This document shows positions 11,202 through 58,416 of a DNA stretch of 64,000 nt, piece by piece. Position 1 is the stretch's first letter; each line of letters opens with the position of its first letter. The stretch covers positions 12,747-76,746 of the forward strand of contig JADFLW010000003.1 of NCBI GenBank assembly GCA_022564195.1. The letters are read 5' to 3'. The notes beneath the pieces are model-generated. The model searched no databases. It had not been told where the DNA came from and worked only from the letters and a program-made list of their open reading frames with translations. The stretch comes from Patescibacteria group bacterium (GTDB lineage: Bacteria > Patescibacteriota > Microgenomatia > UBA1400 > Chisholmbacteraceae). The position numbers were made by a program, and so were the translations under genes.

Positions 11202-12103
11202 AGCTCAGCATCGTCATTTTAAACTTCAACACACGCGAGTACGTCCTCCAGTGCTTGCGATCCATAGAAGAGCAAAATATCGATCCGAAGGCGAATACGC
11301 TGGAAGTCATTGTCTCCGATAATGGATCAACTGATGGATCTGTTGAGGCAATACGGGAAAAATTCCCTTGGGTGAAAATCATTGAGAATAAGAAAAACAT
11401 CGGATTCGCCGCCGGAAATAACAGAGCGATAAAGCAAGCTCGCGGAAAGATCATCTTGCTTTTAAATTCGGACACCATCGTTCTCCCAGATTCCTTCGAG
11501 AAGATGCTTGAGTTTTTAGATAAGACTAAAGATGCTGGTGCGGCAACGGCGCGCCTTGAACTTAAAGATGGGGCGTTAGATCTGGGGTGCCACCGCGGTT
11601 TTCCAACGCCCTGGAATGCGATAACATATTTCTTAAGACTCGAGAGGTTATTCCCCAATGTGCCAGTGTTTTCCGGATACCATCAGTCTTGGAAGGATTT
11701 CAACGTGGCCCATGAGGTCGATGCGATTTCGGGGGCCTGTTTTTTTGTGCGAAGAAAGGTCGTCGAAGAAGTGGGATTGCTCGACGAGCGCTACTTCATG
11801 TATGCAGAGGACCTGGACTGGTGTATGCGGATAAAAAAAGCTGGTTGGAAGATTTACTACGTTCCCGACGCCAAAATCACCCATTTTAAAAAGCGATCGG
11901 GAAGAAGCAAGGCCGAGGGATTGCCAGTATCCCCAGAAACGAGGAAACTGCGAGCAAAAACGATTACCTATTTCTATGACACCATGAGGATCTTCTATGA
12001 TAAACACTACAAAGAAAAGTATCCTAGTTGGCTGAGAGCACTCGTAGTAGCAGGAATCTGGCTGCTCACAGCAGTAAAACTCATCCGCAACCGCTTTCTA
12101 TGA
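11198..12103 (+). CDS. glycosyltransferase family 2
   Basis: 'LSIVILNFNTREYV...VIVSDNGSTDGS' motif. Confidence 0.75.
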   Translation: MKLSIVILNFNTREYVLQCLRSIEEQNIDPKANTLEVIVSDNGSTDGSVEAIREKFPWVKIIENKKNIGFAAGNNRAIKQARGKIILLLNSDTIVLPDSFEKMLEFLDKTKDAGAATARLELKDGALDLGCHRGFPTPWNAITYFLRLERLFPNVPVFSGYHQSWKDFNVAHEVDAISGACFFVRRKVVEEVGLLDERYFMYAEDLDWCMRIKKAGWKIYYVPDAKITHFKKRSGRSKAEGLPVSPETRKLRAKTITYFYDTMRIFYDKHYKEKYPSWLRALVVAGIWLLTAVKLIRNRFL

Positions 12104-12186
12104 AGCGTACTGGCTCTCTAAGAAAGATATCTAAGGGTACGAATGCTGAAATCTCGCCGAAGCCCCGCTTGGTGGGACGGAGGCGG

Positions 12187-13323
12187 ATGAACATTGGTAT
12201 CGATGCCCGCTTTTGGGGATTGGAACATGCTGGCCTCGGGCGATACGTCATGGAGCTCGTCTCCCACTTGGCTCGCCTCGATCGAAAAAACCGCTACACG
12301 CTTTTCTTACGCAAACCTTACGATAAGGAATTAAAGCTTCCAAAAAACTTTGCGCTTGTGAGTGCCAATATCCGCCACTATACCATCGAAGAGCAATGGT
12401 TGCTTGCGGAAATATTTTCCAGGGCAAACCTCGACCTCCTTCATGTTCCCCACTTCAACGTCCCGCTGCTTTATAGAAGACCATTCATCGTGACCATTCA
12501 TGACCTGCTATGGCATGAGGTGAAAGGGCTGTCGGTGACGACCCAAAATACGCTCGTGTATCTCGTGAAATACATTGGATACCGAGCAATCGTTTCCCGC
12601 GTATTAAAGAATTCAGTGCGCATTTTAGTTCCGAGCAAAGTCATACGAGACAAGCTCGTCAACGAGCGTAGAGTAGAGAGAAAGAGAGTTCAAGTGACCT
12701 ACGAAGCGCCGAGCAAAATTTTTAGACCAGTAAGAAAGAAAGCGTCAATTCTTGCCAAATATCGGATCACCGAACCGTTTGTAATCTACGTGGGAAGTGC
12801 CTATCCGCACAAAAACATCGCCGCCGCCGCCGCCGCCGCCAAACTTATCAACGACCGTGGACACACAATCAAGCTTGTTGTTGCCAGCTCCCGCTCGGTC
12901 TTTTTAGATCGATTACGCAGGGAGCTTAAAAAGCAGGGGTCAGAAAAATTTGTGCGCCTCGTAGGATTCGTTCCCGACTATGACTTGGTCATCCTCTTTG
13001 CTCACGCGAAAGCTCTGATTCAACCATCATTGTCGGAGGGATTCGGGCTCACCGGGTTGGAAGCGATGGCCGCCGGACTCCCGGTGATTGCATCGAAGCT
13101 CAAGGTATTTGAAGAAATCTATAAGGACGCGGCTGTCTACATCGATCCGCAGTCGCCGGAAGAAATAGCTGATGAACTCGAAAAGATGGTAAGCAACGAA
13201 AACCTAAGACAACGTGTCATCAAAGCTGGCCTGTCCCGCACAAAGCAATTTAGCTGGTCTCGTCTTGCAAAAAAGACCCTACAAGTGTATGAAGATGCAG
13301 CGGAAGCGCAAAGGAAAGCATGA
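12187..13323 (+). CDS. glycosyltransferase family 4
   Basis: 'EGFGLTGLEAMAAGLPVIAS' motif. Start set at 'MNIGIDARF', preceded by a GGAGG SD, rather than the longer ORF start at 12028. Contains a poly-Ala run. Confidence 0.75.
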   Translation: MNIGIDARFWGLEHAGLGRYVMELVSHLARLDRKNRYTLFLRKPYDKELKLPKNFALVSANIRHYTIEEQWLLAEIFSRANLDLLHVPHFNVPLLYRRPFIVTIHDLLWHEVKGLSVTTQNTLVYLVKYIGYRAIVSRVLKNSVRILVPSKVIRDKLVNERRVERKRVQVTYEAPSKIFRPVRKKASILAKYRITEPFVIYVGSAYPHKNIAAAAAAAKLINDRGHTIKLVVASSRSVFLDRLRRELKKQGSEKFVRLVGFVPDYDLVILFAHAKALIQPSLSEGFGLTGLEAMAAGLPVIASKLKVFEEIYKDAAVYIDPQSPEEIADELEKMVSNENLRQRVIKAGLSRTKQFSWSRLAKKTLQVYEDAAEAQRKA

Positions 13324-14435
13324 GAACGGCACTCGTCTACGACAGGGTAAACAAAATCGGTGGGGCGGAACGGGTGCTTGGCACACTGCACAAGATGTAC
13401 CCGGCTGCCCCGCTTTTTACTGCCGTCTATCATGAGAAGAATGCGCCTTGGGCGAGAGAATGGGATGTCCGACCATCGTTCTTAAATCTCTTCCCACTGG
13501 CCCGTTCAACCCATGAGTTATACCCTTGGCTCACACCGCTCGCCTTTGAAAGCTTCGATTTTGAGGGATTCGACATGGTCATAAATGTCACCAGTGCTGA
13601 AGCAAAAGGAATTCTTACCAAGCCAGAGACCGTGCACCTCTGCTATTGCCTGACACCCACGCAATACCTTTGGGTCAACCCGAAACTATATGAGGAAGCC
13701 ATCCCTCGAATCTTAAGACCGCTAGCCAGGCCCGTATTTTCCTATTTGCGGCACTGGGATAAAATTGCCAGTCAACGCCCGGATGAGATGATCGCAATTT
13801 CAAAAACCGTTCAACGAAGGATTAAAAAGCACTATGGGCGAGATACAGAGGTAATCTATCCACCCGTGGATGTTGAGCGATTCAAGCAAAAGGAAACCAA
13901 GGACAAAGGGCCGCCAACCAACGATCATTTTCTCGTCGTTTCTCGACTCGTTCCATACAAACGCATAGATCTTGTGATTGATGCGTGCAACGCACGTAAA
14001 GTTCCATTGATTATTGTTGGCACGGGGCTTGAGATGAAAAAGCTGAAGCGTCGTGCGGGACCAACGATCCAGTTTGTAGGAAAATTGACAGAGAGTGAAC
14101 TCGTTATGTACTATCAAAGATGCCGTGCCCTGATTTTCCCACAAGAAGAGGATTTCGGCATCAGCGTTGTTGAAGCGCAAGCGGCAGGCAAGCCAGTGAT
14201 TGCCTTCAACAAAGGAGGAGCGACAGAAATCATTCGGACAGGGAAAACGGGCATCTTTTTTTCTCGCCAGAAAGTTGCATCGCTTGTCAACGCAATGGAA
14301 GAGTTTGAAAAATCACAGTTCAGCGCAAGAGTCTGTCAAACAAACGCCAAGCGTTTCAGTAAGGAAAGATTTATGAGAGAATTGAGAATAAAGGTGGAGG
14401 AGCTATGGCAGGAGCACAGAAGAAAATCCCGATAA
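13320..14435 (+). CDS. glycosyltransferase family 4
   Basis: 'FGISVVEAQAAGKPVIAFNKGGATEII' motif. Confidence 0.75.
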   Translation: MRTALVYDRVNKIGGAERVLGTLHKMYPAAPLFTAVYHEKNAPWAREWDVRPSFLNLFPLARSTHELYPWLTPLAFESFDFEGFDMVINVTSAEAKGILTKPETVHLCYCLTPTQYLWVNPKLYEEAIPRILRPLARPVFSYLRHWDKIASQRPDEMIAISKTVQRRIKKHYGRDTEVIYPPVDVERFKQKETKDKGPPTNDHFLVVSRLVPYKRIDLVIDACNARKVPLIIVGTGLEMKKLKRRAGPTIQFVGKLTESELVMYYQRCRALIFPQEEDFGISVVEAQAAGKPVIAFNKGGATEIIRTGKTGIFFSRQKVASLVNAMEEFEKSQFSARVCQTNAKRFSKERFMRELRIKVEELWQEHRRKSR

Positions 14436-15502
14436 AAGTCCTCATCATGTGTGGTGGAAAAGGCACCCGTATGTGGCCGATAAGCAACATCGGCCACCCG
14501 AAGCAGTTTGAGAATCTTCTGGGGAAACAATCAATGTTTCGACAGACCATAGAACGGGTGCTGAAAGGATTCCCGCCCGAGGACATCTATGTCGCTACGA
14601 GCGAGAAATTCGCCAAGTTTATCAAAAACCAAGCGCCAGAAGTTCCTCATGATCATTTCATCCTGGAACCAGCGATGAGGGATAATTTGGGAGCAATTGG
14701 TCTGGCAGCCGCGGTTATCAATCATCACCACCCTGACTCAGTGATGATTATTCTCTGGGGATCTGATCATATCGTCAAAAAGGTAGATAAGTTTTTGCAG
14801 GCGTTAAAACAGGCAGCCCAGTTGGCTTACGAGAACGACGTTATCGTCCACGTTGACACGTCTCCCAGTTATCCATCAGTGCACAATGGCTGGATAAAAA
14901 TCGGAAAGCGAATAAAAAAAATTGGAGACAACGAAGTGTACGAATTCATTTGCCAAGTGGAGAAGCCCGACAAAGAAACCGCAAAAACATTTTTCCGCTC
15001 CCGCAACTACCTCATTCACGTCGGGTACATGGCTGCAAAACCCGCTTTGCTTTTACGCTACTACCGCGAGTACGCTCCTGACGCCTACAAAGTCATCAAG
15101 AGAATTCAGCAAACAATTGGCACCAGTAAATTCAGAAAAACGTTAGAAAGAGAGTATCCTACGTTTGAAAAAGTTTCCGTTGACTATGGATTGTTTGAAA
15201 AACTTCCACCGAAAAGTCAGTGGGAGCTCCCAGTTGATATGGGTTGGATCGATGTCGGAACCTGGGAACTTCTGTATCTTGGACTCGATAAAGACGAGAA
15301 AGGAAATGTCGTGATCGGTGAAGCCCACCTTATTGATACAAAAAAATCACTGATCATAAGTAAGAATAAGGGAGTGATAGGGGTAATTGGCTTGCAAGAG
15401 ATGATTGTTGTGGAAACGGACGAAGGACTGTTGGTATGTCCTTTGAGTGCGGCTCCCAAAGTAAAGCAACTATACAACGAGCTGTACGAGAGGCCCAAGT
15501 AA
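14405..15502 (+). CDS. sugar-1-phosphate nucleotidyltransferase, mannose-1-phosphate guanylyltransferase-like
   Basis: N-terminal 'LIMCGGKGTRMWP...PKQF' NTP-transferase signature. The size and C-terminal domain resemble ManC. Confidence 0.6.
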   Translation: MAGAQKKIPIKVLIMCGGKGTRMWPISNIGHPKQFENLLGKQSMFRQTIERVLKGFPPEDIYVATSEKFAKFIKNQAPEVPHDHFILEPAMRDNLGAIGLAAAVINHHHPDSVMIILWGSDHIVKKVDKFLQALKQAAQLAYENDVIVHVDTSPSYPSVHNGWIKIGKRIKKIGDNEVYEFICQVEKPDKETAKTFFRSRNYLIHVGYMAAKPALLLRYYREYAPDAYKVIKRIQQTIGTSKFRKTLEREYPTFEKVSVDYGLFEKLPPKSQWELPVDMGWIDVGTWELLYLGLDKDEKGNVVIGEAHLIDTKKSLIISKNKGVIGVIGLQEMIVVETDEGLLVCPLSAAPKVKQLYNELYERPK

Positions 15503-15514
15503 CAGATTATTGCA

Positions 15515-16150
15515 ATGATGAAAACCAACTGGTACTTCGAGCCAGTCAAAAGGGTCATGGATATCATTCTAGCGCTGGCACTCATGGTGGTATTCTTGCC
15601 GATCTGGATTGTGATCCCGATCCTCGTCATCCTCGATTCTCCAGGCCCCATAATTTACCGGCATCGAAGAGTAGGCAAGGGAGACAAGGAGTTTTGGATG
15701 TATAAGTTTCGGAGCATGGTGCATAATGCCGATGAGATTCTCTTTAAAAAAGACAAAAAACTTTTGAAAAAGTTTAAAGATAGCGACTGGAAACTTGAGA
15801 AAGATCCGCGAATCACGATACTGGGAAAAATCATGCGCTCAATCACCATCGACGAATTCCCCCAACTCCTAAACGTCCTCAAAGGAGAGATGAGTCTTGT
15901 CGGCCCCCGAGCCTATGTGAAGGAGGAGTTGAAAGAACAACAGCGTAAGTACCCAGAAACAGAAGCCTGGATTGAAGACATTCTGACAATCAAGCCAGGG
16001 ATCACCGGGCCATGGCAAACATCGGGCCGCAATATCGTGCCCTTCAACGTACGAGCCGAGATGGACGCAGAGTATGCAAGAAAGAAATCGATTTTGGAAG
16101 ACATGATCATTATTCTCAAAACACCAGGGGCGATGTTCAGCAAATGGTAG
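15515..16150 (+). CDS. polyprenyl-phosphate sugar phosphotransferase (PglC/WbaP C-terminal-type initiating enzyme)
   Basis: 'DEFPQLLNVLKGEMSLVGPRA' bacterial sugar-transferase signature. It is the short one-TM form. Confidence 0.8.
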   Translation: MMKTNWYFEPVKRVMDIILALALMVVFLPIWIVIPILVILDSPGPIIYRHRRVGKGDKEFWMYKFRSMVHNADEILFKKDKKLLKKFKDSDWKLEKDPRITILGKIMRSITIDEFPQLLNVLKGEMSLVGPRAYVKEELKEQQRKYPETEAWIEDILTIKPGITGPWQTSGRNIVPFNVRAEMDAEYARKKSILEDMIIILKTPGAMFSKW

Positions 16151-24707: not shown

Positions 24708-25973
24708 ATGAAACCCAGTGCAGGGGAAGTGTTGAGAAACCAAAGGGCAGTTGTGTGGATTCGTGGTCTGATTCCGCATCGTTTGCTGAATAGGGTGTAT
24801 CATTTGCCTCGAGCAGTGATCGCAAATGCGGTATATAGGTTTCCTTCTAAAAGGCTCACCGTTGTTGGTGTGACCGGAACCAAAGGAAAAACGACAACCG
24901 CTCACATGATGTACCATATTTTGAGAGAGCAGAAGAAGAACGTGTTGCTCATCTCAACCATCGGTGCGTTCTTTGGCCCAACCAAGATTGACACAGGACT
25001 GCATGTCACAAATCCTGAACCATTTGCGCTGCAAAAACTCCTCCGTCAGGCAGCGGACGAAGGATACGAGTATGTGGTCCTCGAGGTCACAAGCCATGGA
25101 CTGGCTCAATTCAGAAATTGGGGAATTCGGTTTGCCTTGGGGGTGTTCACGCAAGTGCGCGCCGATCATATCACCTACCACGGAGGGGTAGAGGAATATA
25201 AGAAAGCCAAATCCAGGCTCGTAAAAATGTCAAGCAAAGTTGTGCTCAACAGTGATGATCCGAGCCTAAAGTACTTGCTATCCGTGGCCAAACAACACGA
25301 TGTTCCCGCAGTTTTCTATAAAGGAAGTGAAAAGCGCCTTAAGTCTCAGAATGAAGAAGCTGCAATTGCTGCGGCAGTGGAGCTTGGGATTAGAGAAAGC
25401 GAAAGCCGGAAAGCGCTGGAATCATTTCCCGGGATTCCTGGCCGCATGGAGGTGATGAAAAAAAGACCGTTCACTCTTGTCATCGATTTCGCCCACACTC
25501 CAGAGAGTTTGGAGGCCTCACTGAGTGAGCTCCGTCCGATGGTAAAGAAAGACGGGAAGTTGCTTGCGGTCTTCGGCTGTGCCGGTGACAGAGATCCGGG
25601 TCGAAGAAAGATGGGCGCCGTGGCTGCAAAATTGTCAGACATGTTTATCATCACCGCTGAAGATCCCAGGACAGAAGGGGTTGAGAAGATAAGCGATGAG
25701 ATCAGAAGGCACGCGCTATCAGCAGGAGCAAGAGAGATCCCGCTTAAAAAAGCCGTACCGTCGAACAAGAAAAATGGAGCGACGTTCACTCATATCCCAG
25801 ACAGACAAGAAGCAATAAACTTCGCAATTGCCAATGCAAATCCCGGTGATGTGATAGGATTCTTTGGCAAGGGTCATGAGAAGAGTATGTGTTTTGGTGC
25901 GACAGAATACACCTGGTCCGAGCATAAGGCAGTGCGAAAAGCGTTATCATTACGGGAGAAAGGGAAAAGATGA
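24708..25973 (+). CDS. murE: UDP-N-acetylmuramoyl-tripeptide synthetase (MurE-type Mur ligase)
   Basis: 'VVGVTGTKGKTTTAHM' Mur-ligase P-loop. Start at 'MKPSAGE', downstream of the ftsI stop. The amino-acid specificity cannot be determined from the sequence. Confidence 0.75.
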   Translation: MKPSAGEVLRNQRAVVWIRGLIPHRLLNRVYHLPRAVIANAVYRFPSKRLTVVGVTGTKGKTTTAHMMYHILREQKKNVLLISTIGAFFGPTKIDTGLHVTNPEPFALQKLLRQAADEGYEYVVLEVTSHGLAQFRNWGIRFALGVFTQVRADHITYHGGVEEYKKAKSRLVKMSSKVVLNSDDPSLKYLLSVAKQHDVPAVFYKGSEKRLKSQNEEAAIAAAVELGIRESESRKALESFPGIPGRMEVMKKRPFTLVIDFAHTPESLEASLSELRPMVKKDGKLLAVFGCAGDRDPGRRKMGAVAAKLSDMFIITAEDPRTEGVEKISDEIRRHALSAGAREIPLKKAVPSNKKNGATFTHIPDRQEAINFAIANANPGDVIGFFGKGHEKSMCFGATEYTWSEHKAVRKALSLREKGKR

Positions 25974-27247
25974 GCCAAGTTACCGCAGTCCTCCTTGCAG
26001 GTGGTGTCGGCAAGCGCCTTTGGCCAATGACTCAGGATAAAAGCCTCCTTCGATTTTTGGACAAACCGCTCATTGCGCATACAGCCTTGGCACTGAGGAA
26101 CGCCGGAATTACGCATGTGGTTGTAGTCGCCAACAGACAAAATCAAAAAGCACTACAGGAGCTCAAGGGAGGAACGGTAGTCGTTCAAAAGAACCCTCTT
26201 GGAATGGGGGATGCCATGCTGACGGTGCGAACCCACATCAAAGGAAGCTCGATCCTTGTCGTCAATGCTGCCGACATTGTCGATCAAAAGTTGTACGAAA
26301 ATATTCTCCAGAAAGCTCAAAAGACGAGTGCGGACATCATTATTCCGGGCTTGGAAAGAAAAGAGTATTTTCCTGGGGGATACCTGAGAATCGAGGGGGG
26401 GAAAGTGGTCGAAGTAGTTGAGAAGCCTGGAGAGGGAAGGCGGCCGAGCAATTTGGTCAATCTGGTCGCGCACTTTTTCCGAAACGCGAATGAGTTTCTT
26501 GAAAAGATTCAAAAGACGGATTCAAAAAGAGATGATGTGTACGAGCAGGCCTTGTCCGCGCTTCTCAAAACCAAGAAGGCGGAGGTAATTCGCTACAAAG
26601 GCCCGTTTGGATGGATAAAATACCCCTGGGATATCTTGGAGATGTCAAGCCTTTTCTTGAGAGAAAGAGTGAGCACATCGAGCATAAGCCGAAAGGCATC
26701 CATTCATGGTTCAGCAATCATTGAAGGCCCGGTGGTTATTGAGAGCGGGGCGAAGGTGCTCGAGCACGCAGTGATCAAAGGCCCGACATACATTGGAGCC
26801 AACTCCACAATTGGAACAAGCGCCTTGGTTCTTGAGTCGATGATAGGGAGAAATTGTATGGTTGGCTTCGCGAGTGAGGTAGCAAGGAGTTATCTGGGGA
26901 ACGGGTGTTGGCTGCATACCAACTACATCGGCGACTCGGTGTTCGAAGGGGAAAACTATTTGGGCGCAGGTGCCGTGACCGCAAATTTCCGATTCGATGA
27001 AAACAACATCCATTCAACAGTAGAGGGAAAAAGGATGAACACGAAACGGACCAAACTCGGAGCTATCCTTGGTCGAGGTGCCCGTGTTGGAGTCAACGCC
27101 AGCCTGATGCCGGGAGTGAAAATCGGCTCGGGTGCATTCGTTGGTCCCGGTGTCGTGCAGTATTCGGATATGAATGCTCAAGGTCGAGTATTCATGGATC
27201 GAGCTCTAGTTCGTGAGTCAATACGAAAGAAGAAAAACGATCAATGA
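25970..27247 (+). CDS. bifunctional-type sugar nucleotidyltransferase (NTP-transferase N-domain + LbH C-domain, GlmU-like)
   Basis: 'LLAGGVGKRLWPMT' nucleotidyltransferase signature plus C-terminal hexapeptide repeats. Confidence 0.55.
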   Translation: MSQVTAVLLAGGVGKRLWPMTQDKSLLRFLDKPLIAHTALALRNAGITHVVVVANRQNQKALQELKGGTVVVQKNPLGMGDAMLTVRTHIKGSSILVVNAADIVDQKLYENILQKAQKTSADIIIPGLERKEYFPGGYLRIEGGKVVEVVEKPGEGRRPSNLVNLVAHFFRNANEFLEKIQKTDSKRDDVYEQALSALLKTKKAEVIRYKGPFGWIKYPWDILEMSSLFLRERVSTSSISRKASIHGSAIIEGPVVIESGAKVLEHAVIKGPTYIGANSTIGTSALVLESMIGRNCMVGFASEVARSYLGNGCWLHTNYIGDSVFEGENYLGAGAVTANFRFDENNIHSTVEGKRMNTKRTKLGAILGRGARVGVNASLMPGVKIGSGAFVGPGVVQYSDMNAQGRVFMDRALVRESIRKKKNDQ

Positions 27248-27990
27248 AGAATGTCGCAGCGATCGTTCTTGCTGCCGGAAAAGGAACACGAATTAACGCC
27301 CTGACAACCAACAAAGTTCTGTTCCCACTAGCGGGGAAGCCAATGATTGGATACACTGCTGAGCTTCTCCGCAAGACAGGTGTTTCTCCAATTGTGGTTG
27401 TGGTCGGCTTCAAGGGGAAGGAGGTCATGCGCTTCTTAGGCCGCGGATTTGTGTATGTCAATCAAGGCAAGCTTCTTGGCACGGGCCATGCGGTTCAAAA
27501 AGCAATGACAAAGCTACCCCAAGAAACAAAACAGACATTGGTGCTCAATGGAGACGATTCGGCGTTTTATACTCCGCAATTGTTGAAAGATTTAATAAAC
27601 CTTCATCTCAGATCTCACGCGGTCATGACCGTTCTTTCGGTCGAAAGGAAAGATCCAATAGGATACGGACGAATACTTCGGGATCGAAATGGAGAAGTTA
27701 CAGGAATTCGGGAGGAAAGGGATGTTACGGAAAAAGAAAAAAGGATAAAGGAAATCAACACGGGCGCCTATTGTTTCTCAGTGAGCTTCCTCAGAAAGTA
27801 CCTCAATAATATCAGAAAAAATCCCGTGAAAGGCGAATACTATCTCACTGATTTGGCAGAGTTAGCCGTGAAGGACAATCTAGACGTGGAGGCAGTCAAA
27901 GTGGATGATGAGACAGTCTCGTTGGGGGTGAATTCCCTGGAAGAATTGAAACAAGCAGATCGGCTGATGAGACAGAAGCTCAAGTCATGA
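27244..27990 (+). CDS. UDP-GlcNAc pyrophosphorylase-like nucleotidyltransferase (GlmU N-terminal domain only)
   Basis: 'LAAGKGTRINALTTNKVLFPLAGKPM...LGTGHAV' matches the GlmU uridyltransferase motifs. There is no LbH domain. Confidence 0.55.
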   Translation: MKNVAAIVLAAGKGTRINALTTNKVLFPLAGKPMIGYTAELLRKTGVSPIVVVVGFKGKEVMRFLGRGFVYVNQGKLLGTGHAVQKAMTKLPQETKQTLVLNGDDSAFYTPQLLKDLINLHLRSHAVMTVLSVERKDPIGYGRILRDRNGEVTGIREERDVTEKEKRIKEINTGAYCFSVSFLRKYLNNIRKNPVKGEYYLTDLAELAVKDNLDVEAVKVDDETVSLGVNSLEELKQADRLMRQKLKS

Positions 27991-31157: not shown

Positions 31158-32474
31158 ATGGAAAAATTCATCATCCAGGGAGGAAGAGAACTTCACGGCT
31201 CCGTCCGGCTCGGAGGCGCGAAAAACTCAAGCTTCAAGCTCATGATCGCGTCTCTATTGGCTCAAGGAGAAACGCGTCTTTTAAACATCCCACTCATCAA
31301 TGATGTGGAGATCACCCGGCAGATAATCGATCACTTGGGAGGCCGAGTCCGCAGCGCCGGAGAACGGTTGCTTTGCGTTGATGGTACAAATCTCACAACG
31401 AATGAAGTTCCTCAACGCTTCGGAAAACACTCTCGTGCCTCGACGATGTTCATCGCCCCCTTGCTTAGTAGATTCAAGAAGGCGGTTGTCCCATTGCCAG
31501 GAGGAGATAAAATCGGCGCTCGTCCCTTAGACAGGCATTTCGCCGTATTTAAAGCGCTTGGTGCAACCGTCACACAACGAGGCAACGTGGTTGTCGTTTC
31601 CGCAGACCGATTGACTGGTTCACACTACAAATTTGAAAAGAATAGCCATACTGGAACTGAAACGGCGATCATGGCCGCGGTACTGGCTGTGGGCAAAACG
31701 ATCCTGGAAAACGCGGCAGCAGAACCTGAGGTCGACGACCTTATCACTTTTCTCACGAGCATGGGTGCCAAGATTCAAAGGAAGCCCGGTCGCAGAATAG
31801 AGATCATCGGAGTGAAGAAACTTATCCCGACAATCCACCGCATCATGCCGGATCGAAATGAGGCGGTATCCTTCGCCTGCGCGGCGGTTGCAACAGGTGG
31901 AGACATCATTGTGGAAAACGCAAGAGAAGAACATCTCAAAGCGTTTCTCCATAAGCTTGAAGAAGTGGGGGGCGGGTATGAAGTAGGAAGTTTCGGCATT
32001 CGATTTTACCATCAAGGAGCCTTTAGATCGGTTGATGTGGTTACGAAACCGTATCCCGGATTCATGACTGACTGGCAACCGCTCTGGGCCGTGCTGATGA
32101 CGCAAGCCAAGGGCACCGCGATCATCCATGAAACGGTTCACAACAACCGATTCCAGTATGTTCGAGATTTAAGAAAGATGGGTGCCAAGATTTCGCTTTT
32201 CAATCCAAAAGTTACAAATCCAAGAAGGTTCTATAATTTCAATCTTCAAGACGATCGTCCGGAGTATCGCCACGCTGCCAAAATTCAGGGCCCGACGCCA
32301 CTGAAGGGAAGAGAGCTTAAAGTTCATGATCTCCGCGCCGGGGCAACCTTGGTTTTGGCAGCCCTGATTGCCAAAGGGCAAAGCACCATAACTGGAGTGG
32401 ACCATATTGACAGAGGCTACGAAAATCTCGATGGCCGACTGATTGACTTAGGTGCTAGTATAAAGAGGTTGTAA
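31158..32474 (+). CDS. murA: UDP-N-acetylglucosamine 1-carboxyvinyltransferase
   Basis: 'IQGGRELHGSVRLGGAKNSSFKLMIASLLA' EPT-fold signature. Confidence 0.9.
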   Translation: MEKFIIQGGRELHGSVRLGGAKNSSFKLMIASLLAQGETRLLNIPLINDVEITRQIIDHLGGRVRSAGERLLCVDGTNLTTNEVPQRFGKHSRASTMFIAPLLSRFKKAVVPLPGGDKIGARPLDRHFAVFKALGATVTQRGNVVVVSADRLTGSHYKFEKNSHTGTETAIMAAVLAVGKTILENAAAEPEVDDLITFLTSMGAKIQRKPGRRIEIIGVKKLIPTIHRIMPDRNEAVSFACAAVATGGDIIVENAREEHLKAFLHKLEEVGGGYEVGSFGIRFYHQGAFRSVDVVTKPYPGFMTDWQPLWAVLMTQAKGTAIIHETVHNNRFQYVRDLRKMGAKISLFNPKVTNPRRFYNFNLQDDRPEYRHAAKIQGPTPLKGRELKVHDLRAGATLVLAALIAKGQSTITGVDHIDRGYENLDGRLIDLGASIKRL

Positions 32475-32529
32475 TAAAGGGGAAGGGAGGTGGTTGGGAA
32501 GCAAAAATAGCAAAGAAGCGTGTGGTCCC

Positions 32530-32735
32530 GATAGCGCTGGCGCTTATCGGGAATACGAGGAAGGGGGATCCCCCGACATCACGTCGGGGGGATCGGACTC
32601 CCGGTGTAAAATACCGGGGAGAATCTGCGGAGACCCCCTGGTTGTTCGGCCAACCACAACGGACGGATCAAAACCTCGCAGTAATGTGGGAGACAGAGTC
32701 CAACCGAAGCCGAAAGGGTTTTCTTCATCCCTAAT
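32530..32735 (+). ncRNA. glmS ribozyme: candidate glmS ribozyme (GlcN6P-responsive self-cleaving riboswitch) in the glmS 5' leader
   Basis: In the order seen in the Bacillus glmS ribozyme: 'AGCGC' (cleavage-site region, about 32533), 'ACGAGGA.GGGGG' (32554-32566), 'ACUCCCGG' (about 32597-32604) and 'AAAGGGUUUUCUUCA' (about 32714-32728). Compare GACGAGGA, CCUCCCGGCUG and GUAAGGAUUUCUUCA in Bacillus. It lies about 100-300 nt upstream of glmS. Confidence 0.5.
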
Positions 32736-32823
32736 AATTTCCTGATTATTGAACATCAATAAGGAGGAGTGTTTTGTGTGGTGAAACTAGTGTATTTTCA
32801 CCCTAAACCTAAACGCTAATGAT

Positions 32824-34605
32824 ATGTGTGGAATTTTCGGATACGTAGGTCACCAAGAAGACGCAGCCGACATCGTCTTTGAGGGCTTAAAAAGATTGGA
32901 ATACCGCGGATACGACTCTTGGGGAATTGCGGTCAAAAAGCCAGGAACGGGCAGCAAAAATACCTTTGCGATCAGGAAAAGAACGGGAAAGATCGGAAAC
33001 GCCAAGGTCAGTGACCTCCCCAAAAGCAGCTTTGGTTTAGGACACACGAGGTGGGCAACCCATGGTGGGGTAACCAAAATTAATGCCCACCCACATACCG
33101 ACTGCACAGGTTCCATTGTCTTGATCCACAACGGCATAATCGAGAATTACGAAAAGTTGAAAAAGAACCTTATAGCCCACGGCCACCGTTTTGTGTCCGA
33201 AACAGATAGCGAAGTTGCGGTCCATTTGATTGAAGAGCTCAACAAAACCTGCTCATTCACAGAGGCAGTTCGCAAAGCTTTTCTTAAGTTGGAGGGCTTA
33301 AACGCCATAATCGTCATGCATCCGCGAGCGCACACATTTGTTGGGGTCCGGAACGGATCGCCACTTGTCGTTGGTTTGGGAAAGGGAGGAAACTACCTTG
33401 CCTCAGATGCTGCCGCTCTCCTGCCTCACACCAAGAAGGTGTACTTTTTAGAAGATAACGATTTGGTGGTAGCAGACGCAGAGAATGTCCAAATCATCGA
33501 GGTGAAAACGGGGAAGAGAAAGAAGATCAAGCCGCGTACGCTTACCTGGAGCATAAAGCAAGCTGAAAAAGGGAAGTACCCCCATTTCATGATCAAAGAA
33601 ATTCATGAACAGCCGTCCATACTCTCTGAGATTGCTTCGAGTGGTCTCTCTAATGCCAAAAAGCTCAGCAAACATATCGATCAGGCCTTCGACACCTACA
33701 TGGTGGGCTGCGGAACCGCTTCATATGCCTGTATTGCAGGTTCCTACCTTTTTTCCAAAATCGCCAATCGTCATATCAACTGGGCTGTTGGAAGCGAATT
33801 CGGATATCAGCTAGACTTTTTAACCCCAAAAAGCCTGGTTATGGCACTCTCTCAATCTGGCGAAACAATAGATACACTTGAAGCGGTGAAGAAAGCGAAA
33901 GGGAAAGGCGCAAAGATTTTTGCACTTGTCAATACACTTGGGTCGTCTCTGTATCGTGAAGCCGACTATTCAATGCTCATTGGTGCAGGACCAGAGAAAG
34001 CCGTCGCCTCCACAAAAGCCTTCACTGGAAAGCTTGCCCATCTGGTGCTTCTTGCATACGCTCTGGCCGGCAAACCAAAGAGTGGTCAATCGACACTCTT
34101 GAAAGCCGCAAAGGCAAGCAAGACAGTCCTCACTCCTGAATCTAGGGCGAGGATAAAAAAACTCGCGGAGAGGATGAAAAACAAAGAGCACATCTATGTT
34201 ATTGGAAGAGGCTTATCGTACCCCGCGTCGCTAGAAACCGCATTAAAAATCAAAGAGATCTCCTACATCCATGCCGAAGGATTCGCGGCTGGAGAATTGA
34301 AGCACGGCGTGATCGCGCTTGTCGAGAAAGGTACCCCTTGCATTGCCTTTTTACCTAACGATGAAACGTATGGTGCCAATCTCGCTGGCGCGATGGAAAT
34401 GAAGGCCCGTGGCGGCTCCATCATCGGGATTTCCCACAAGCCGCACGAGGTCTTTGATTTCTATATTCCAGTGGCAGATGCTCAAGAAGCCACGATCATT
34501 CCCAATGTCATCGTCGGTCAAGTCTTAGCCTATTATCTCGCGATCGCGCGCGACCTCGACCCCGACATGCCCCGCAACCTCGCTAAATCCGTAACGGTGA
34601 AGTAA
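32824..34605 (+). CDS. glmS: glutamine--fructose-6-phosphate aminotransferase
   Basis: 'MCGIFGYVG' Ntn-amidotransferase start followed by two SIS domains. Confidence 0.9.
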   Translation: MCGIFGYVGHQEDAADIVFEGLKRLEYRGYDSWGIAVKKPGTGSKNTFAIRKRTGKIGNAKVSDLPKSSFGLGHTRWATHGGVTKINAHPHTDCTGSIVLIHNGIIENYEKLKKNLIAHGHRFVSETDSEVAVHLIEELNKTCSFTEAVRKAFLKLEGLNAIIVMHPRAHTFVGVRNGSPLVVGLGKGGNYLASDAAALLPHTKKVYFLEDNDLVVADAENVQIIEVKTGKRKKIKPRTLTWSIKQAEKGKYPHFMIKEIHEQPSILSEIASSGLSNAKKLSKHIDQAFDTYMVGCGTASYACIAGSYLFSKIANRHINWAVGSEFGYQLDFLTPKSLVMALSQSGETIDTLEAVKKAKGKGAKIFALVNTLGSSLYREADYSMLIGAGPEKAVASTKAFTGKLAHLVLLAYALAGKPKSGQSTLLKAAKASKTVLTPESRARIKKLAERMKNKEHIYVIGRGLSYPASLETALKIKEISYIHAEGFAAGELKHGVIALVEKGTPCIAFLPNDETYGANLAGAMEMKARGGSIIGISHKPHEVFDFYIPVADAQEATIIPNVIVGQVLAYYLAIARDLDPDMPRNLAKSVTVK

Positions 34606-34614
34606 GCGAGTCTT

Positions 34615-34989
34615 GTGATTTGCTATACTACTTCTGTTATGCGAAGGCACATCACTGCGTTCGGGCTCGCCTTTTCCGGAATCTGGTATGCTTGGCGCAC
34701 GCAGCCGAATTTTGTTGTCCACTCGCTGTTTACCGCTCTGGTAATTGGCCTTGGTGTGACGCTAGAGATTTCGCACGTTGAGTGGGTAGCACTCCTGCTG
34801 ACCGTCATACTCGTTTTCGTGGCGGAGATGATAAACACCTCGATCGAGTCAATGACGAATCTCATCACCACGGAACACCGGAAAAATGCCAAAATCGCCA
34901 AAGACGTGTCAGCGGGAATGGTATTAACGGCAGTAATTGGCGCCCTAATCATTGGTCTCGTCATCTTCGCACCAAAGATACTGCGTTGA
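34615..34989 (+). CDS. dgkA: diacylglycerol kinase / undecaprenol kinase (DgkA family)
   Basis: Three TM helices. 'EMINTSIESMTNLIT' and 'AKDVSAGMVL' match DAGK_prokar motifs. Confidence 0.65.
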   Translation: MICYTTSVMRRHITAFGLAFSGIWYAWRTQPNFVVHSLFTALVIGLGVTLEISHVEWVALLLTVILVFVAEMINTSIESMTNLITTEHRKNAKIAKDVSAGMVLTAVIGALIIGLVIFAPKILR

Positions 34990-35081
34990 ATAAGAAACAA
35001 GTAATAAGTGACAGGAAAAGAATTCTTAGGTCTTAAACCTTAAACATCAAACATTAAACGTTAACCATTAGTCATCAGCCC

Positions 35082-36110
35082 ATGGCTTTGCTCCTCGGAC
35101 TTCTCATCTTTTCCTTCCTGACAACGGCCATTTTGATCGTGCCGTTCATCAATCTTCTCTATAAACTTCGCTTCCAGAGAGGCCAGCAACGAACTCGTGA
35201 CGCATTTGGAAAACTCACACCAATATTCAATCGTTTCCATAGCGCAAAAGCCGGAACACCGGTAGGTGGTGGATTGCTGGTCATGATCGTCGTCGCGATC
35301 CTCTTCTCGATAGTATTTCCGCTTATTCGGTTTGTAGGTGTTCCTATAACCGAAGTCTATCCCCTTCGCGACGAGGTAAATATCCTGTTCTTCACCTTCA
35401 TCGCCTTTGGTCTTTTGGGCCTCTACGATGACTTCATGAAATTCTTTGGAGTCGACAAAAAGTTCTTCGGACTCCGACTGCGTCATAAGTTTGTCATACA
35501 ATGGATCCTGGCGTTGATCGTTGCCCTCCTTTTGTATGTCAATCTGAAGATCGACATCCTAAACATCCCGTTTGTCGGGGTGTTCAAGCTGGGGTGGTGG
35601 TACGTGCCTTTTGCTGCGTTCACGATTGTTGCATTTACCAATGCATTTAACATCACCGATGGACTCGATGGTTTAGCGACGGGGTTATTGATGATCGCCC
35701 TGTTTGGCTTTTGGGTCATCTCTGCTTCAATTTTGGATACGCCCTTGTCGGTGTTCCTAACCCTATGGTTGGGGGCACTGATCGCGTTTTTGTATTTCAA
35801 TGTCTACCCGGCAAGAATCTTCTTAGGCGATGTCGGGGCCCTCGCTTTCGGAGCAACACTGGCGGTCGTGGGACTACTGCTTGGAAAGATATTAGCACTC
35901 GTGGTCATCGGGGGGCTCTTCGTCATTGAGATTACATCAAGCCTTCTCCAGCTCACCTACAAACGCTTCTACGGGAGGAAGCTATTCCCCGTAGCGCCGG
36001 CGCACCTGTGGTTGCAGCACATCGGATGGGAGGAGCCCAAGATCGTGACAAGAGCTTGGCTGGGCGGGATCATGCTTGCGATCTTCGGCGTCTGGTTAGC
36101 TGTGATCTAA
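35082..36110 (+). CDS. mraY: phospho-N-acetylmuramoyl-pentapeptide transferase
   Basis: 'NAFNITDGLDGLATG' and other MraY loops, with 10 TM helices. Confidence 0.9.
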   Translation: MALLLGLLIFSFLTTAILIVPFINLLYKLRFQRGQQRTRDAFGKLTPIFNRFHSAKAGTPVGGGLLVMIVVAILFSIVFPLIRFVGVPITEVYPLRDEVNILFFTFIAFGLLGLYDDFMKFFGVDKKFFGLRLRHKFVIQWILALIVALLLYVNLKIDILNIPFVGVFKLGWWYVPFAAFTIVAFTNAFNITDGLDGLATGLLMIALFGFWVISASILDTPLSVFLTLWLGALIAFLYFNVYPARIFLGDVGALAFGATLAVVGLLLGKILALVVIGGLFVIEITSSLLQLTYKRFYGRKLFPVAPAHLWLQHIGWEEPKIVTRAWLGGIMLAIFGVWLAVI

Positions 36111-51496: not shown

Positions 51497-51572
51497 GGGC
51501 TCATAGCTCAATCGGCAGAGTGCTTCGTTCACATCGAAGAGGTTCCAGGTTCGAGTCCTGGTGAGCCCACCA
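51497..51572 (+). tRNA. tRNA-Val: tRNA-Val (anticodon CAC), CCA encoded
   Basis: Manual cloverleaf. Acceptor GGGCTCA/TGAGCCC. D-arm GCTC..GAGT. Anticodon stem CTTCG/CGAAG with loop TTCACAT. T-arm CCAGG-TTCGAGT-CCTGG. Discriminator A followed by CCA. Confidence 0.8.
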
Positions 51573-51574
51573 AT

Positions 51575-51910
51575 ATGAAAATCGTCTCTCTCGAGAAACT
51601 CAAAGATGAACCGCTGACTCACAGTCCTAAGATCAAGAAACGGGTTTTGCTAAAAAAAGGAGAGGTTCCTCATCTGACAAGTTTCTCACAAGCCACTTTC
51701 AAGCCTGGACAAATCGCCAGCGAACACGTCCATGAGGATATGTACGAAGTCTATTTAGTTCAAGGTGGAACGGGCCTGATCAAAGTCGATGGAAAAGTAC
51801 ACCAACTCAAAAAAGGCGACTGCGTGATGACTGAGCCAGGAGAGAACCACGAATTCATCAACACCGGCTCCGAGGACTTAGTCCTCACCTACTTCGGAAT
51901 ACAAAAGTAA
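51575..51910 (+). CDS. cupin-domain protein
   Basis: 111 aa with 'GQIASEHVHEDMYEVYLVQGG...GENHEFIN' double-His cupin motifs. The ORF-track start at 51491 overlaps the tRNA and is rejected. Confidence 0.6.
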   Translation: MKIVSLEKLKDEPLTHSPKIKKRVLLKKGEVPHLTSFSQATFKPGQIASEHVHEDMYEVYLVQGGTGLIKVDGKVHQLKKGDCVMTEPGENHEFINTGSEDLVLTYFGIQK

Positions 51911-52006
51911 AGGAAATTCTTCTTAGGGAAAAAAGAAACCAAATAAGAACGCGTGTATGTAGGGATTGAAGAGAAAGAGAAAGCCAAACCCCAAAAAGGG
52001 GAGGTG

Positions 52007-52037
52007 AGATAGGCTCAGAGCCCACCTCACCTGTTCT
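52007..52037. terminator. bidirectional hairpin terminator between the cupin gene (+) and the island operon (-)
   Basis: 'AGGTGAG-ataggctcagagcccac-CTCACCT' is a 7-bp stem. On the - strand it is followed by CCCCUUUUUGGGG and a U-rich tract. Confidence 0.35.
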
Positions 52038-52199
52038 CTCGCCGCCTCACAAGGCCATTGTAGGCCCAGAGTCCCAGGCCTCCCGCACATAGTGGGAAGA
52101 CGGAGGAAAATGACGAGATTGCTCAACACCTCTCGCACTTCAGTAAGCTCATGGATGCGATCCGACCGATAGCTAAGCGGCCGTGTGATCACGAGCGCG

Positions 52200-53639
52200 T
52201 CAGCTCTCCGCAACAGCTGCTGGGCGAGCAGGAGCCGGACGTCCGAGCCCGAGCTCCTCGGCGTAGTAGGTGATCGGTTTATCCCTCGTCTCCCTGATGA
52301 GGTCCTTTTGGGCGAACACCCACCGATTGGTAGCCTCATTGCCATTCCAGTAGACAGCTTTCACCCGCTTGATTTCGTCATACTGATCACTGGTGGTAAG
52401 GTTTTTAAGCTTCCGGCACTTCGACCTACCCACATTGATCTTCGGATGGTCAGCTAAAGGGTTGTCGGTGAACAACCACAAGAGAGTCGAGAGCGAAAGC
52501 ATCTTCTCCCGAGCAAAGTAGGCTTCGGTGGTCTGCTCCCCTCCTTGCTCATAGAGAACGTCGACGATGAGTGTCAGGCTTCGTTCCTTGCCGTCTCCGT
52601 TCGGCCGCGAGTCCCTGTACTGGCCTTTGATCGCCAGAAGCTCTGTGCCAAAGGCGATTGATTGGACGGAAATGGCTCCCGGAATCCAAGGCTGGCCTTC
52701 GGTTTTGAAGTCGCCTTCCGTTCTGAAGACCGGGCTGCGGGAATGGCCCTGGACGACCTTCGTCCCCGAGGTCTTGATCGCGATCACGCGTTTCCCGGAA
52801 GCCGTCAGCCGCCGAGCGCGCTTGATGAAAAACTCTCCCATCTGCACCCAGGCGAACATCGGGGTGACCCCTTCTGGCGCAGCATAGAGCTCCACTCGAG
52901 GATCTTCCAGATGGCCCATGAACAGCATATCATCGCTGAGGTCCGTGTAGTCCTCTTCCCGCTCTCCGGCGATGCAGGCCATGAGATGAAAGTCTGAGTA
53001 CTGATCCTCCTCCATCATCAACATCGCTGCCCTAAAAATCGCCCGTAGATTCATGGTCTTGCCAACTCCACCTGGACCGGCAATCCATAGACCGTGGCCT
53101 TCGCCGAGCGGCCATCCGCCACGGAAAATGATCCCGAGGACAGGTTCGTACTCTTCGTCCCAGGAAACCCGGCGATCGAAGTAGTCGAGTGGAAGAGGTT
53201 TGTTGGGATAGCGGCCGAAGATCTTGTTCTGATCCTCCTCGTCCGGCTTCGCAACCAAAGTGGGCCAATTTCGGACCACCGCAGCGTCCGTTTCCCCGTT
53301 GACGGAAATGATCTGAGTGATAGGGTCCGGAGGAACCTCTTCCTCGTTGTCGGATCTGCTGCTCGATCTGTCAGGCGGCTCCCGATAGAGGATAAGATCC
53401 CCTTCCCGTAATCCCCACAGCTCCACAGTAGGGGAAGGAATGAATCGGCCCCTTGCAAGGGACTCAGCAAAAATCTCACTCCTGGGGAATTTCGCCAACT
53501 TCTTGGCGTTTGGCGGGATGACCACCGTATCTGGAGTTCCCCATTTGCCGTATACAGGTCTCTGGCTCTGAGGGAGCTCCGAGAGGGGTCGTTGTAGTAC
53601 CAACCCACGCTTCGGTTTATCATCTTGTGTACTCAACAC
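52200..53639 (-). CDS. P-loop NTPase (island gene A), function unknown
   Basis: Walker A 'GPGGVGKT' in mid-protein and a candidate Walker B 'LTLIVDV'. The start is re-set to GTG at 53637-53639, because the conserved hairpin+SD leader motif ('GGAAAGGAG' + 8 nt) sits immediately upstream. The ORF-track ATG at 53699 lies inside that leader. Confidence 0.55.
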   Translation of the reverse strand: MLSTQDDKPKRGLVLQRPLSELPQSQRPVYGKWGTPDTVVIPPNAKKLAKFPRSEIFAESLARGRFIPSPTVELWGLREGDLILYREPPDRSSSRSDNEEEVPPDPITQIISVNGETDAAVVRNWPTLVAKPDEEDQNKIFGRYPNKPLPLDYFDRRVSWDEEYEPVLGIIFRGGWPLGEGHGLWIAGPGGVGKTMNLRAIFRAAMLMMEEDQYSDFHLMACIAGEREEDYTDLSDDMLFMGHLEDPRVELYAAPEGVTPMFAWVQMGEFFIKRARRLTASGKRVIAIKTSGTKVVQGHSRSPVFRTEGDFKTEGQPWIPGAISVQSIAFGTELLAIKGQYRDSRPNGDGKERSLTLIVDVLYEQGGEQTTEAYFAREKMLSLSTLLWLFTDNPLADHPKINVGRSKCRKLKNLTTSDQYDEIKRVKAVYWNGNEATNRWVFAQKDLIRETRDKPITYYAEELGLGRPAPARPAAVAES

Positions 53640-53648
53640 AAGTCTTTC

Positions 53649-53678
53649 TCCTTTCCTAGTGGGCCTCAGGCCCAACCG
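53649..53678 (-). promoter_or_regulatory. conserved leader hairpin + SD motif (copy for gene A)
   Basis: Gene-sense 'CGGUU-GGGCC-UGA-GGCCC-ACUAGGAAAGGAG'. A degenerate second copy lies at 53721-53750. Confidence 0.5.
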
Positions 53679-53996
53679 GTCAGTCCGTTTTCCAGTCATT
53701 GCTGGATTGGGAACAGGCTACCCTCTAGTAGTGGGCCTCTGGTCCAAAAGGAAATCTCTAGAGAGCATTCCGTTCCCAATCCGTACGCGTTCTTATTTGG
53801 TTGTCAAGGAGCTAATGCGAAGCATAAGCTCCGCACCCGCCAATATTTTTCGAGGGAGTATACGGCTGACTAAGCAGTAAGCCGACCATCGATAAAATAT
53901 GGTGGGAAAGTGCTATCCCGCTCAAGCGGGATCCAAATGCCCGCCCCAACAAACGCCAAATGTCTGTTTGCAGGCGTCTTATAAATTGTCAATTTT

Positions 53997-54063
53997 CCTC
54001 TGTTTCGCCCTCCGTAGCTTTAGCGTAGGGGGCTCATCAGTCAGCCTTTGGCTGAAACAGAAA
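53997..54063 (-). ncRNA. hammerhead ribozyme, type III (HHR-1)
   Basis: Gene-sense 'UUUCUGU U|UCAGCC-AAA-GGCUGA CUGAUGA G-CCCCCUACGC-UAAA-GCUACGGAGGG-C GAA ACAGAGG'. Canonical CUGAUGAG...CGAAAC core. Stem III UUUCUGU/ACAGAGG, stem I UCAGCC/GGCUGA, GUU cleavage triplet. Confidence 0.6.
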
Positions 54064-54225
54064 ACAACACAACAAAATCAAACTACAACCCCCTTCACAC
54101 AAACAAACAAACAAACAATTCATCAACCCCGCAAATGGGATTGAGATGTCTGCCGAATTTCGGTGAAGAGAGGGTGAGGGAGGGATCCCAAACTTCGGGA
54201 TCCCATTCCCATGTCAACGTCCCTC

Positions 54226-54576
54226 TTAGGACCGCCACGGTCTTCGGCCTATCCATTCGGCTGTTGGGAGGTCATTCCCGCGCCATCGTCCGTTGGATCG
54301 CAATGGATCCTCATTGACGACCTGACGTAAAAGCCCAATGGAAAGGGCGATCGCGCCGATGATGCCAACGAAAACGGCCAGGAAGCTCGAAACCAAACGC
54401 GAGAGTAGTGGAATGGACTCCACCAAATCTCGCTGAGCCGACGTTAACTCGCCGCCCGACGGAAAGCCAAATGCCGCAAACACATGAAGCGCGAATATGC
54501 CTCCCAGGAAAGGTAGGAGCAAATGAGGCCGATGAAAAGTGCTAAATGGACTCGGAAGTACCAGTCCGAAAACCAT
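54226..54576 (-). CDS. small two-TM membrane protein (pilin/VirB2-like topology)
   Basis: 116 aa. GAGGAG SD 8 nt before the ATG. Hydrophobic N-terminal segment, polar loop, second TM helix. Confidence 0.4.
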   Translation of the reverse strand: MVFGLVLPSPFSTFHRPHLLLPFLGGIFALHVFAAFGFPSGGELTSAQRDLVESIPLLSRLVSSFLAVFVGIIGAIALSIGLLRQVVNEDPLRSNGRWRGNDLPTAEWIGRRPWRS

Positions 54577-54677: not shown

Positions 54678-54680
54678 ATC

Positions 54681-54716
54681 CTTCCTCCCTTCGTAGTTGG
54701 CCTCTGGCCAAACCGG
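54681..54716 (-). promoter_or_regulatory. conserved leader hairpin + SD motif (copy for small ORF)
   Basis: See the leader-motif finding. Confidence 0.45.
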
Positions 54717-56537: not shown

Positions 56538-56540
56538 ATC

Positions 56541-56576: not shown

Positions 56577-56624
56577 ATGAACCATACGCGTCGTTGCGCG
56601 TGGGCTCGAAAATGAACCCGACGG

Positions 56625-58407: not shown

Positions 58408-58416
58408 GCACCGCCA

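Follow-up and report, generated by a model that had tools for sequence, protein, structure and literature searches.

Classical glmS ribozymes have been described from B. subtilis, B. anthracis and T. tengcongensis, and we took the definitions of helices and pairings from two studies of them, a k-seq paper on the B. subtilis ribozyme (PMC11602151) and an array paper on the T. tengcongensis (Tte) ribozyme (PMC7125110). In the Tte core, G26 belongs to a G26.(G7-C52) base triple, the identity of the C2-G pair matters, and single mutations of the 5-53 pair lower the rate by about 200-fold or more, with the exception of the wobble-forming C5U (PMC7125110). Among natural active ribozymes the 5-53 pair is poorly conserved (PMC7125110). 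Decay of the cleaved glmS message in Bacillus is RNase J1-dependent, as Collins et al. (2007) are quoted in a citing paper.

Searches of the full-text literature returned no paper that joins the glmS ribozyme with the Candidate Phyla Radiation (CPR), the main distribution surveys lying outside the scope of these searches, none on glmS and riboswitches together with the CPR or Saccharibacteria, and no Patescibacteria riboswitch paper relevant to natural elements. CPR organisms have minimal regulatory repertoires.

The DNA that we analyzed (hereafter the window) is a stretch of 64,000 nucleotides from a Patescibacteria group bacterium. When all of it was scanned with Rfam 15 at gathering thresholds, two matches were found, a tRNA (51497-51569) and the glmS ribozyme family RF00234. 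The latter match extends over 32506-32716 on the plus strand and covers model positions 1-167, i.e., the full model, with a score of 55.8 bits against a gathering score of 37 and E = 3.6e-10 (whole window, 4227 families); the score is below those of classical representatives (60-116 bits). The element ends 108 nt 5' of the ATG of glmS (32824) on the same strand. A first-pass annotation of this DNA had proposed a glmS ribozyme upstream of glmS, and the covariance-model search bore this out. We consider it highly likely that 32506-32716 is a genuine glmS ribozyme, of a subtype specific to Patescibacteria (CPR), located in the glmS 5' leader. This prediction is based on the covariance model, the core nucleotides, the capacity to form the helices and pseudoknots, comparative support and the invariable link to glmS. 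The glmS ribozyme is a known RNA class, and we rate the element as lineage-specific structural variation within this class and not as a new variant class, because any Rfam-based annotation would find it.

Alignment to the covariance model places the predicted cleavage site A(-1)^G1 at 32517/32518, within AAGCGUGUGG, a sequence kept in every relative found through GlmS homology; the nucleotides here are A32517, G32518, C32519 and G32520. The P1 hairpin (32526-32552, from the fold and the alignment) has 11 bp, one bulge and a CUGG loop and folds at -16.1 kcal/mol (z = -4.45). Its distal stem includes the pairs G32534-C32543, C32535-G32542 and G32536-C32541, and the conserved identity of the G at the P1 tetraloop-receptor position is kept (G32551). 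The core strand AUACGAGGAA (32553-32562), assigned from the alignment and published nucleotide maps, contains ACGAGG (A32555-G32560), in which A32555 is the base-triple A and G32560 corresponds to the catalytic guanine (Tte G40 / Bsu G42). U32554 stands where classical ribozymes have G26. According to the same maps, the active-site nucleotides G32630 and A32631 (Bsu G67/A68) are followed by G and A (32630-32633). Further conserved nucleotides are kept as well, namely the C2-G pair, U-C before the P2.2 3' strand and G-A after it.

All of the nested helices, P1, P2, P3, P4 and P4.1, were recognized from the alignment, the folds and the pairing of P2. The P2 5' strand GGGGG (32563-32567) pairs with CCCCC (32634-32638), and across 72 relatives P2 is 99.7% paired in the anchored register, with 11 distinct helices; since P2 is G/C-homopolymeric, registers shifted by +/-1 are still 77-86% paired, so this control is a weak one. 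The P3 hairpin UGGUUG/CAACCA follows at 32639-32656 (stem 32639-44 / 32651-56; alignment and fold). Next come J3/4 and the P4 5' strand, CAACGGACGGAUCAAAA (32657-73), whose B. subtilis counterpart we take to be GUAAGGAUUUCUUCA. The P4/P4.1 peripheral domain (32660-32706; alignment, fold -13.7 kcal/mol) has an A-rich internal loop (CAAAA / ACAGA), the GNRA tetraloop GUAA (32681-84) and two mismatched positions in P4.

All three pseudoknots, P2.1, P2.2 and P3.1, are able to form in the window ribozyme. Under the published pairing scheme (PMC7125110), the P2.2 5' strand consists of C2, G3, U4, G5, a bulged U6 and G7 (32519-32524), and the 3' strand of C32625 and UGCG 32626-29 (32625-32629). The resulting pairs are C32519-G32629, G32520-C32628, U32521.G32627 and G32522.U32626, then the bulged U32523 and G32524-C32625, i.e., two Watson-Crick pairs and two G.U pairs (U4.G and G5.U), then G-C past the bulge. 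For comparison, we aligned 42 sequences (20 minimal CPR-type and 22 classical) with MAFFT. This alignment displaces one P2 and one P3 strand by a column between the subgroups and aligns the CPR-type P4 domain poorly; only P2.1 and P2.2 were scored on it, whereas for P2, P3 and P3.1 we scored each sequence separately, using anchors. The five P2.2 and three P2.1 pairs are together 98.8% paired, compared with 25-38% in controls with the 3' partner shifted by 1-3 columns, and the P2.2 helix by itself is 100% paired. Pair 5-53 changed on both sides (C-G in 22 of the 42 sequences, G.U in 20) and pair 4-54 is C-G or U.G, these classes being essentially two clades and hence few independent events. At the third P2.1 pair, 33 sequences have A-U and 7 have C-G.

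The P2.1 5' strand C32556 G32557 A32558 (32556-32558) is part of the core strand. Its partner was chosen by comparison among several CG dinucleotides of an insert and is predicted to be the UCG at 32593-32595, inside the single-stranded AUCGGA (32592-97), giving C32556-G32595, G32557-C32594 and A32558-U32593. We prefer this assignment because AAUCGGAC is conserved in L156, the nearest CPR-type relative among the matches listed, and because both share a plan of hairpin, single-stranded UCG and hairpin. In the minimum free energy fold, the bottom pairs of the first hairpin (G32567-C32594, A32568-U32593) compete with P2 and P2.1 and would need opening. P3.1 pairs the P3 loop UUCGGC (32645-50) with its perfect 6-bp complement GCCGAA (32709-14), and a compensatory U-A to C-G change distinguishes the window from L156. 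Over 65 CPR-type sequences, the longest complement between loop and tail averages 4.85, compared with 4.04 +/- 0.09 (maximum 4.29 in 300 permutations) when loops are permuted between sequences.

The two hairpins that bracket the P2.1 3' strand are insertions. Hairpin 1 (32568-32592; stem 32570-77 / 32583-90; fold -19.8 kcal/mol) lies in place of the short P2-to-P2.1 linker, and hairpin 2 (32598-32621; fold -13 kcal/mol) is at the P2a loop position. They occur beside the P2.1 strand, where the Tte mutational map suggests little tolerance (PMC7125110). The distance from the P2 5' strand to the P2.2 3' strand has a bimodal distribution, with 26 sequences at 12-15 nt (e.g., UUUAUCGGAUAAUC) and the others at 38-130 nt; in the window it is 58 nt. 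Among the matches listed, 26 of the 72 CPR-type relatives are minimal, with no inserts, and folds of 33 of the 72 revealed a common plan consisting of hairpin 1, single-stranded AAUCGG(A/G), hairpin 2, (G)AGUAUC and UGCG. In L156 both hairpins differ in sequence from those of the window, yet they still pair and are located in the same places.

Relatives were collected through GlmS homology from one-genome-per-species GTDB contigs, and Rfam scans covered all 80 GlmS-relative loci. The closest GlmS proteins belong to Candidatus Gottesmanbacteria and "Patescibacteria group" MAGs (63-67% identity), some of which bear implausible default labels such as "uncultured Gammaproteobacteria", followed by Levybacteria (~55%) and then Chloroflexota (48-53%). 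Classical ribozymes were detected 5' of glmS in Chloroflexota, Thermomicrobiales, Sphaerobacter and Methylomirabilota/Rokubacteria MAGs (60-99 bits) and in Firmicutes controls (88-116 bits). Lower scores (45-66 bits) were obtained for CPR genomes (L002, L004-L007, L065, the Dojkabacteria locus L064 and the Saccharibacteria locus L068), and no RF00234 match was found in Levybacteria, Peregrinibacteria, Woykebacteria, Woesebacteria or archaea among the 80 loci. The first-pass annotation had treated the ribozyme as a Firmicutes/Deinococcus feature. This premise is too narrow: the class is not confined to these phyla, because classical copies occur in Chloroflexota and Methylomirabilota, and CPR-type copies occur in several Patescibacteria lineages. 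The presence of the ribozyme in the CPR is thus a range extension and not an anomaly.

A signature AGCGUGUGG...AUACGAGGA is present in seven of the closest GlmS relatives (L001, L002, L004-L007 and L065), and a GCGUA form of it in L064 and L068. All CPR copies have U at position 4 and AUACGAGG instead of the classical (U/A)UGACGAGG. Judging from GlmS and from this RNA signature, we regard the window as DNA of a Microgenomates-type CPR genome. A metagenome scan with the pattern AGCGTGTGG-N(12-42)-ATACGAGGAA returned at least 120 stretches; because the pattern fixes AGCGUGUGG and AUACGAGGAA, variation at these places is invisible in this set. Of the 120 stretches listed, ~66 are real CPR-type ribozymes, and about 45 were discarded as chance matches to unrelated sequence, most of it coding. 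Among the matches listed, glmS lies downstream in every CPR-type locus with enough downstream sequence, 135-680 nt (mostly 170-400 nt) from the start of the extracted element.

In Gottesmanbacteria RBG_16_52_11 (L001, 2691-2912) a CPR-type ribozyme is present and falls below the Rfam gathering score; therefore, Rfam-based annotation under-counts insert-rich copies. L003, whose GlmS is 64% identical to that of the window, has no ribozyme signature at all 5' of glmS. The Dojkabacteria (L064, 2794-2966) and Saccharibacteria (L068, 2769-2966) elements have A at both 5 and 53 (GCGUA ... UCAGCGG), an A/A mismatch in P2.2, and keep U4 and AUACGAGG. The P4/P4.1 domain is poorly conserved among CPR-type ribozymes (alignment columns 125-200); L156 (Ga0209542_10000005, ~1260-1320) has no GNRA tetraloop, and L088 and L176 have a very short 3' domain, which suggests that the tetraloop-receptor brace may be dispensable or replaced in part of the CPR-type group. 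In addition, a classical bacterial ribozyme (91 bits) was found at 2638-2803 of DASRWT010000065.1 (L044), 5' of a GlmS 51% identical to that of the window, on a contig binned as the archaeon Candidatus Nitrosocosmicus; this is probably a mis-binned bacterial contig.

By analogy with the classical systems, the RNA would fold into a double-pseudoknot core (P2-P2.1-P2.2), with P1 and the P3/P3.1-P4/P4.1 domain as its braces, and its preformed pocket would bind glucosamine-6-phosphate (GlcN6P) as a catalytic cofactor. Self-cleavage between A32517 and G32518 would then leave the glmS message with a 5'-hydroxyl end, the message would be degraded, and GlmS synthesis would drop as the product accumulates. 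Ligand dependence, actual cleavage and the decay step are what we infer from homology with the B. subtilis, B. anthracis and T. tengcongensis ribozymes. No RNase J/Y gene is encoded within the 64-kb window.

The ribozyme is embedded in a complete dcw cluster, in which NCBIfam and Pfam scans placed all genes on the plus strand. The 5' part has the order rsmH, ftsI, Mur ligase, two glmU-like genes, pgeF, murC, murB, murA and the ribozyme; the 3' part consists of glmS, a dgkA-type kinase gene (DAGK_prokar), mraY, murI, a murD-like ligase gene, ftsW, murG, an unidentified ORF, ftsA and ftsZ. The gene order that had been noted at first pass (murC, murB, murA, glmS, dgkA, mraY) therefore stands. The glmS gene (32824-34605, plus strand) encodes a glutamine--fructose-6-phosphate transaminase with the N-terminus MCGIFGY (NF001484, 655.9 bits; TIGR01135, 624.2 bits). 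Directly 3' of it lies the dgkA-type kinase gene (34615-34989, plus strand; Pfam DAGK_prokar, 106.5 bits), followed by mraY (35082-36110, plus strand; profile scan). On the 5' side, the stop codon of murA (31158-32474, plus strand; profile scan) is 43 nt from the cleavage site. A consensus scan, which may not fit CPR promoters, detected no sigma-70-like promoter in 31900-35200 (3.4 expected by chance), and a scan of the same locus detected no terminator between murA and the ribozyme. Because murA ends so close to the cleavage site, with no recognizable promoter or terminator between, the ribozyme is probably transcribed as an internal part of a dcw/mur polycistron.

A broader proposal, which we hold tentatively and regard as rather doubtful, is that the CPR-type glmS ribozymes form a structurally distinct subclass, inherited vertically and marked by U4, U26 and hairpins on both sides of the P2.1 strand, and that the one in the window acts as an operon-internal processing switch also controlling genes 3' of glmS. 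If the operon-internal part of it were true, the GlcN6P-triggered cut would split the dcw polycistron between murA and glmS, the downstream fragment with its 5'-OH would be destabilized, and control by GlcN6P would extend beyond glmS to dgkA, mraY, murI, murD, ftsW and possibly murG-ftsA-ftsZ, with the upstream murC-murB-murA being spared. Among the loci and matches listed, the murA ... dgkA-mraY-murI neighborhood occurs only in the window and L156, and embedding between murA and dgkA-mraY is not a general property of CPR-type ribozymes. In a crude ORF-based count of the 53 loci for which enough upstream sequence was available, 15 have a same-strand ORF whose end is within 60 nt of the cleavage site.

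It is also conceivable, but improbable, that the element is related to the glmS ribozyme but derived or in decay, so that the fold is kept, cleavage is inefficient or depends on another ligand or condition, and the RNA serves as a structured leader or processing signal. Its bit score is indeed lower than those of classical copies. With two Watson-Crick and two G.U pairs, P2.2 is weakened, and U takes the place of G26; both changes are at sites that matter in the Tte core (PMC7125110). In addition, large inserts adjoin the P2.1 strand, the P4/P4.1 domain is poorly conserved in the CPR-type group, and the GNRA loop is missing from L156. However, the variant positions are fixed across dozens of contigs from three or more CPR lineages, in each case 5' of glmS, and this speaks for a working element under purifying selection. 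None of the active-site and cofactor-pocket nucleotides examined has been lost, pairing in P2, P2.1, P3 and P3.1 is preserved by compensatory changes, and the 5-53 pair is one that varies among natural active ribozymes (PMC7125110).

The same ribozyme had been read in another register in the first-pass annotation, which took AGCGC (32533-32537) as the cleavage site, ACGAGGAAGGGGG (32555-32567) as the second block, GGACUCCCGG (32595-32604) as the P2 3' strand and P3, and AAAGGGUUUUCUUCA (32713-32727) as the fourth block, the start of P4. All four strings are present and resemble parts of the B. subtilis sequence, and the placement of ACGAGGAAGGGGG, which comprises core strand and P2 5' strand, is right. 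The covariance model, however, puts none of the other three there. AGCGC belongs to the distal P1 stem and is absent from L156, the true site being A32517^G32518. GGACUCCCGG is contained in a 56-nt insertion relative to the RF00234 model, where it runs from the last part of the P2.1 3' strand into the 5' arm of an inserted hairpin; the P2 3' strand is in fact CCCCC (32634-38), and P3 is UGGUUG...CAACCA (32639-56). AAAGGGUUUUCUUCA shares its first two bases with the end of the P3.1 tail and is otherwise 3' of the ribozyme. The start given for the candidate, 32530, is 13 nt 3' of the cleavage site, so that the site itself, the P2.2 5' strand and the P1 5' arm are omitted. Such a register offers no P1 hairpin, no well-placed P2.2 partner and no P4.1 or GNRA loop past the fourth block, and more than 70 homologues support the covariance-model register. 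The model alignment and the absence of AGCGC from L156 already refute the first-pass register. Finally, chance resemblance, in which the region would have no RNA function and would either be plain intergenic spacer or belong to an overlapping 83-aa ORF (32494-32745), is for practical purposes excluded by a full-model match at this E value over the whole window and 4227 families, and also has against it the homologous elements with compensatory changes at the same position in many genomes and the lack of a Pfam match for the ORF.

Beyond the glmS ribozyme itself, the rest of the glmS leader (32717-32823, plus strand) has features of its own. A small hairpin (32716-31) directly 3' of the ribozyme has the loop UUUCUUC, which is complementary to AAGGAG with one G.U pair, and L156 has a similar loop, UUCUUCA. 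A strong Shine-Dalgarno-like sequence, AAGGAGGAG (32761-69), is located 55 nt 5' of the glmS ATG, not adjoining the start; after it come a GTG-TGG-TGA mini-ORF and a 7-bp hairpin (32780-32802). The CCUARACGCUAA that precedes the glmS ATG is also conserved. From its sequence, this part of the leader may be a second, translational layer of control.

Some observations concern other parts of the window. Two adjacent glmU-like genes are found at 25970-27990, in the same cluster as glmS; one encodes a full-length archaeal-type sugar-1-phosphate nucleotidyltransferase/acetyltransferase that scores below the NCBIfam cutoff, and the other a protein of 248 aa whose match to bacterial GlmU is limited to the N-terminal uridyltransferase half. 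A large polysaccharide/glycosylation cluster (1665-16150) includes six GT1-family and two GT2-family glycosyltransferases together with Wzy_C, PMT_2, Bac_transf, a hexapeptide acetyltransferase and NTP_transferase. Right after the tRNA at 51497-51569, GC content rises from ~0.48 to 0.56-0.57 and genes switch to the minus strand; genes in this region (51497-64000) are large (499-803 aa), and only one of them, for a Peptidase_M23 protein (56944-58407), has a Pfam match at 1e-10. The region may represent an island that integrated at the tRNA, or else a chimeric assembly.

Our analysis extends a well-studied metabolite-dependent ribozyme to the CPR. The class definition is unchanged by the CPR-type glmS ribozyme, and the advance is solid but incremental. 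CPR-type sequences represent natural experiments on the core, with a two-wobble P2.2, U at the G26 position and hairpins beside P2.1. The signature shared by Gottesmanbacteria-like, Dojkabacteria and Saccharibacteria elements, together with the classical form in Chloroflexota, bears on the age of the ribozyme and on lineage relationships. Because of its place within an operon, the window ribozyme can serve to test whether such an RNA would split a cell-wall/cell-division transcript.

Compared with the classical glmS ribozymes of B. subtilis, B. anthracis and T. tengcongensis, the window element has the same position in the glmS leader, the same A^G cleavage site and ACGAGG core with the catalytic G, the same P1, P2, P3 and P4/P4.1 helices and P2.1, P2.2 and P3.1 pseudoknots, and the same bulged nucleotide 6, G7-C pair, GNRA L4 and A-rich P4 internal loop. 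It differs in its P2.2 strands, GCGUG instead of GCGCC on the 5' side and UGCG instead of GGCG on the 3' side, which yield U4.G and G5.U, and in AUACGAGG instead of (U/A)UGACGAGG, which places U at the G26 base-triple position. Two stable hairpins of ~25 nt flanking the P2.1 3' strand and a weaker P4 also set it apart from these classical ribozymes, and its score of 55.8 bits compares with 88-116 bits in the Firmicutes controls. The nearest non-CPR relatives of the window GlmS (48-53% identity), from Chloroflexota/Thermomicrobiales and Methylomirabilota MAGs (L021-L058, L066), are preceded by ribozymes that have the same position and P2.1 covariation (A-U or C-G) as the CPR-type, but retain the classical GCGCC/GGCG and a UGACG(A/C)GG core, lack inserts and are 153-166 nt long (60-99 bits). 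The CPR-type set (drawn from L001-L007, L064, L065, L068 and L081-L200) shares with the window U4 and AUACGAGG, the ...AUC UGCG G... 3' strand and a downstream glmS. Its nearest member among the matches listed, L156, also shares the murA / dgkA-mraY-murI context, whereas most CPR-type ribozymes among these matches are located in other gene neighborhoods.
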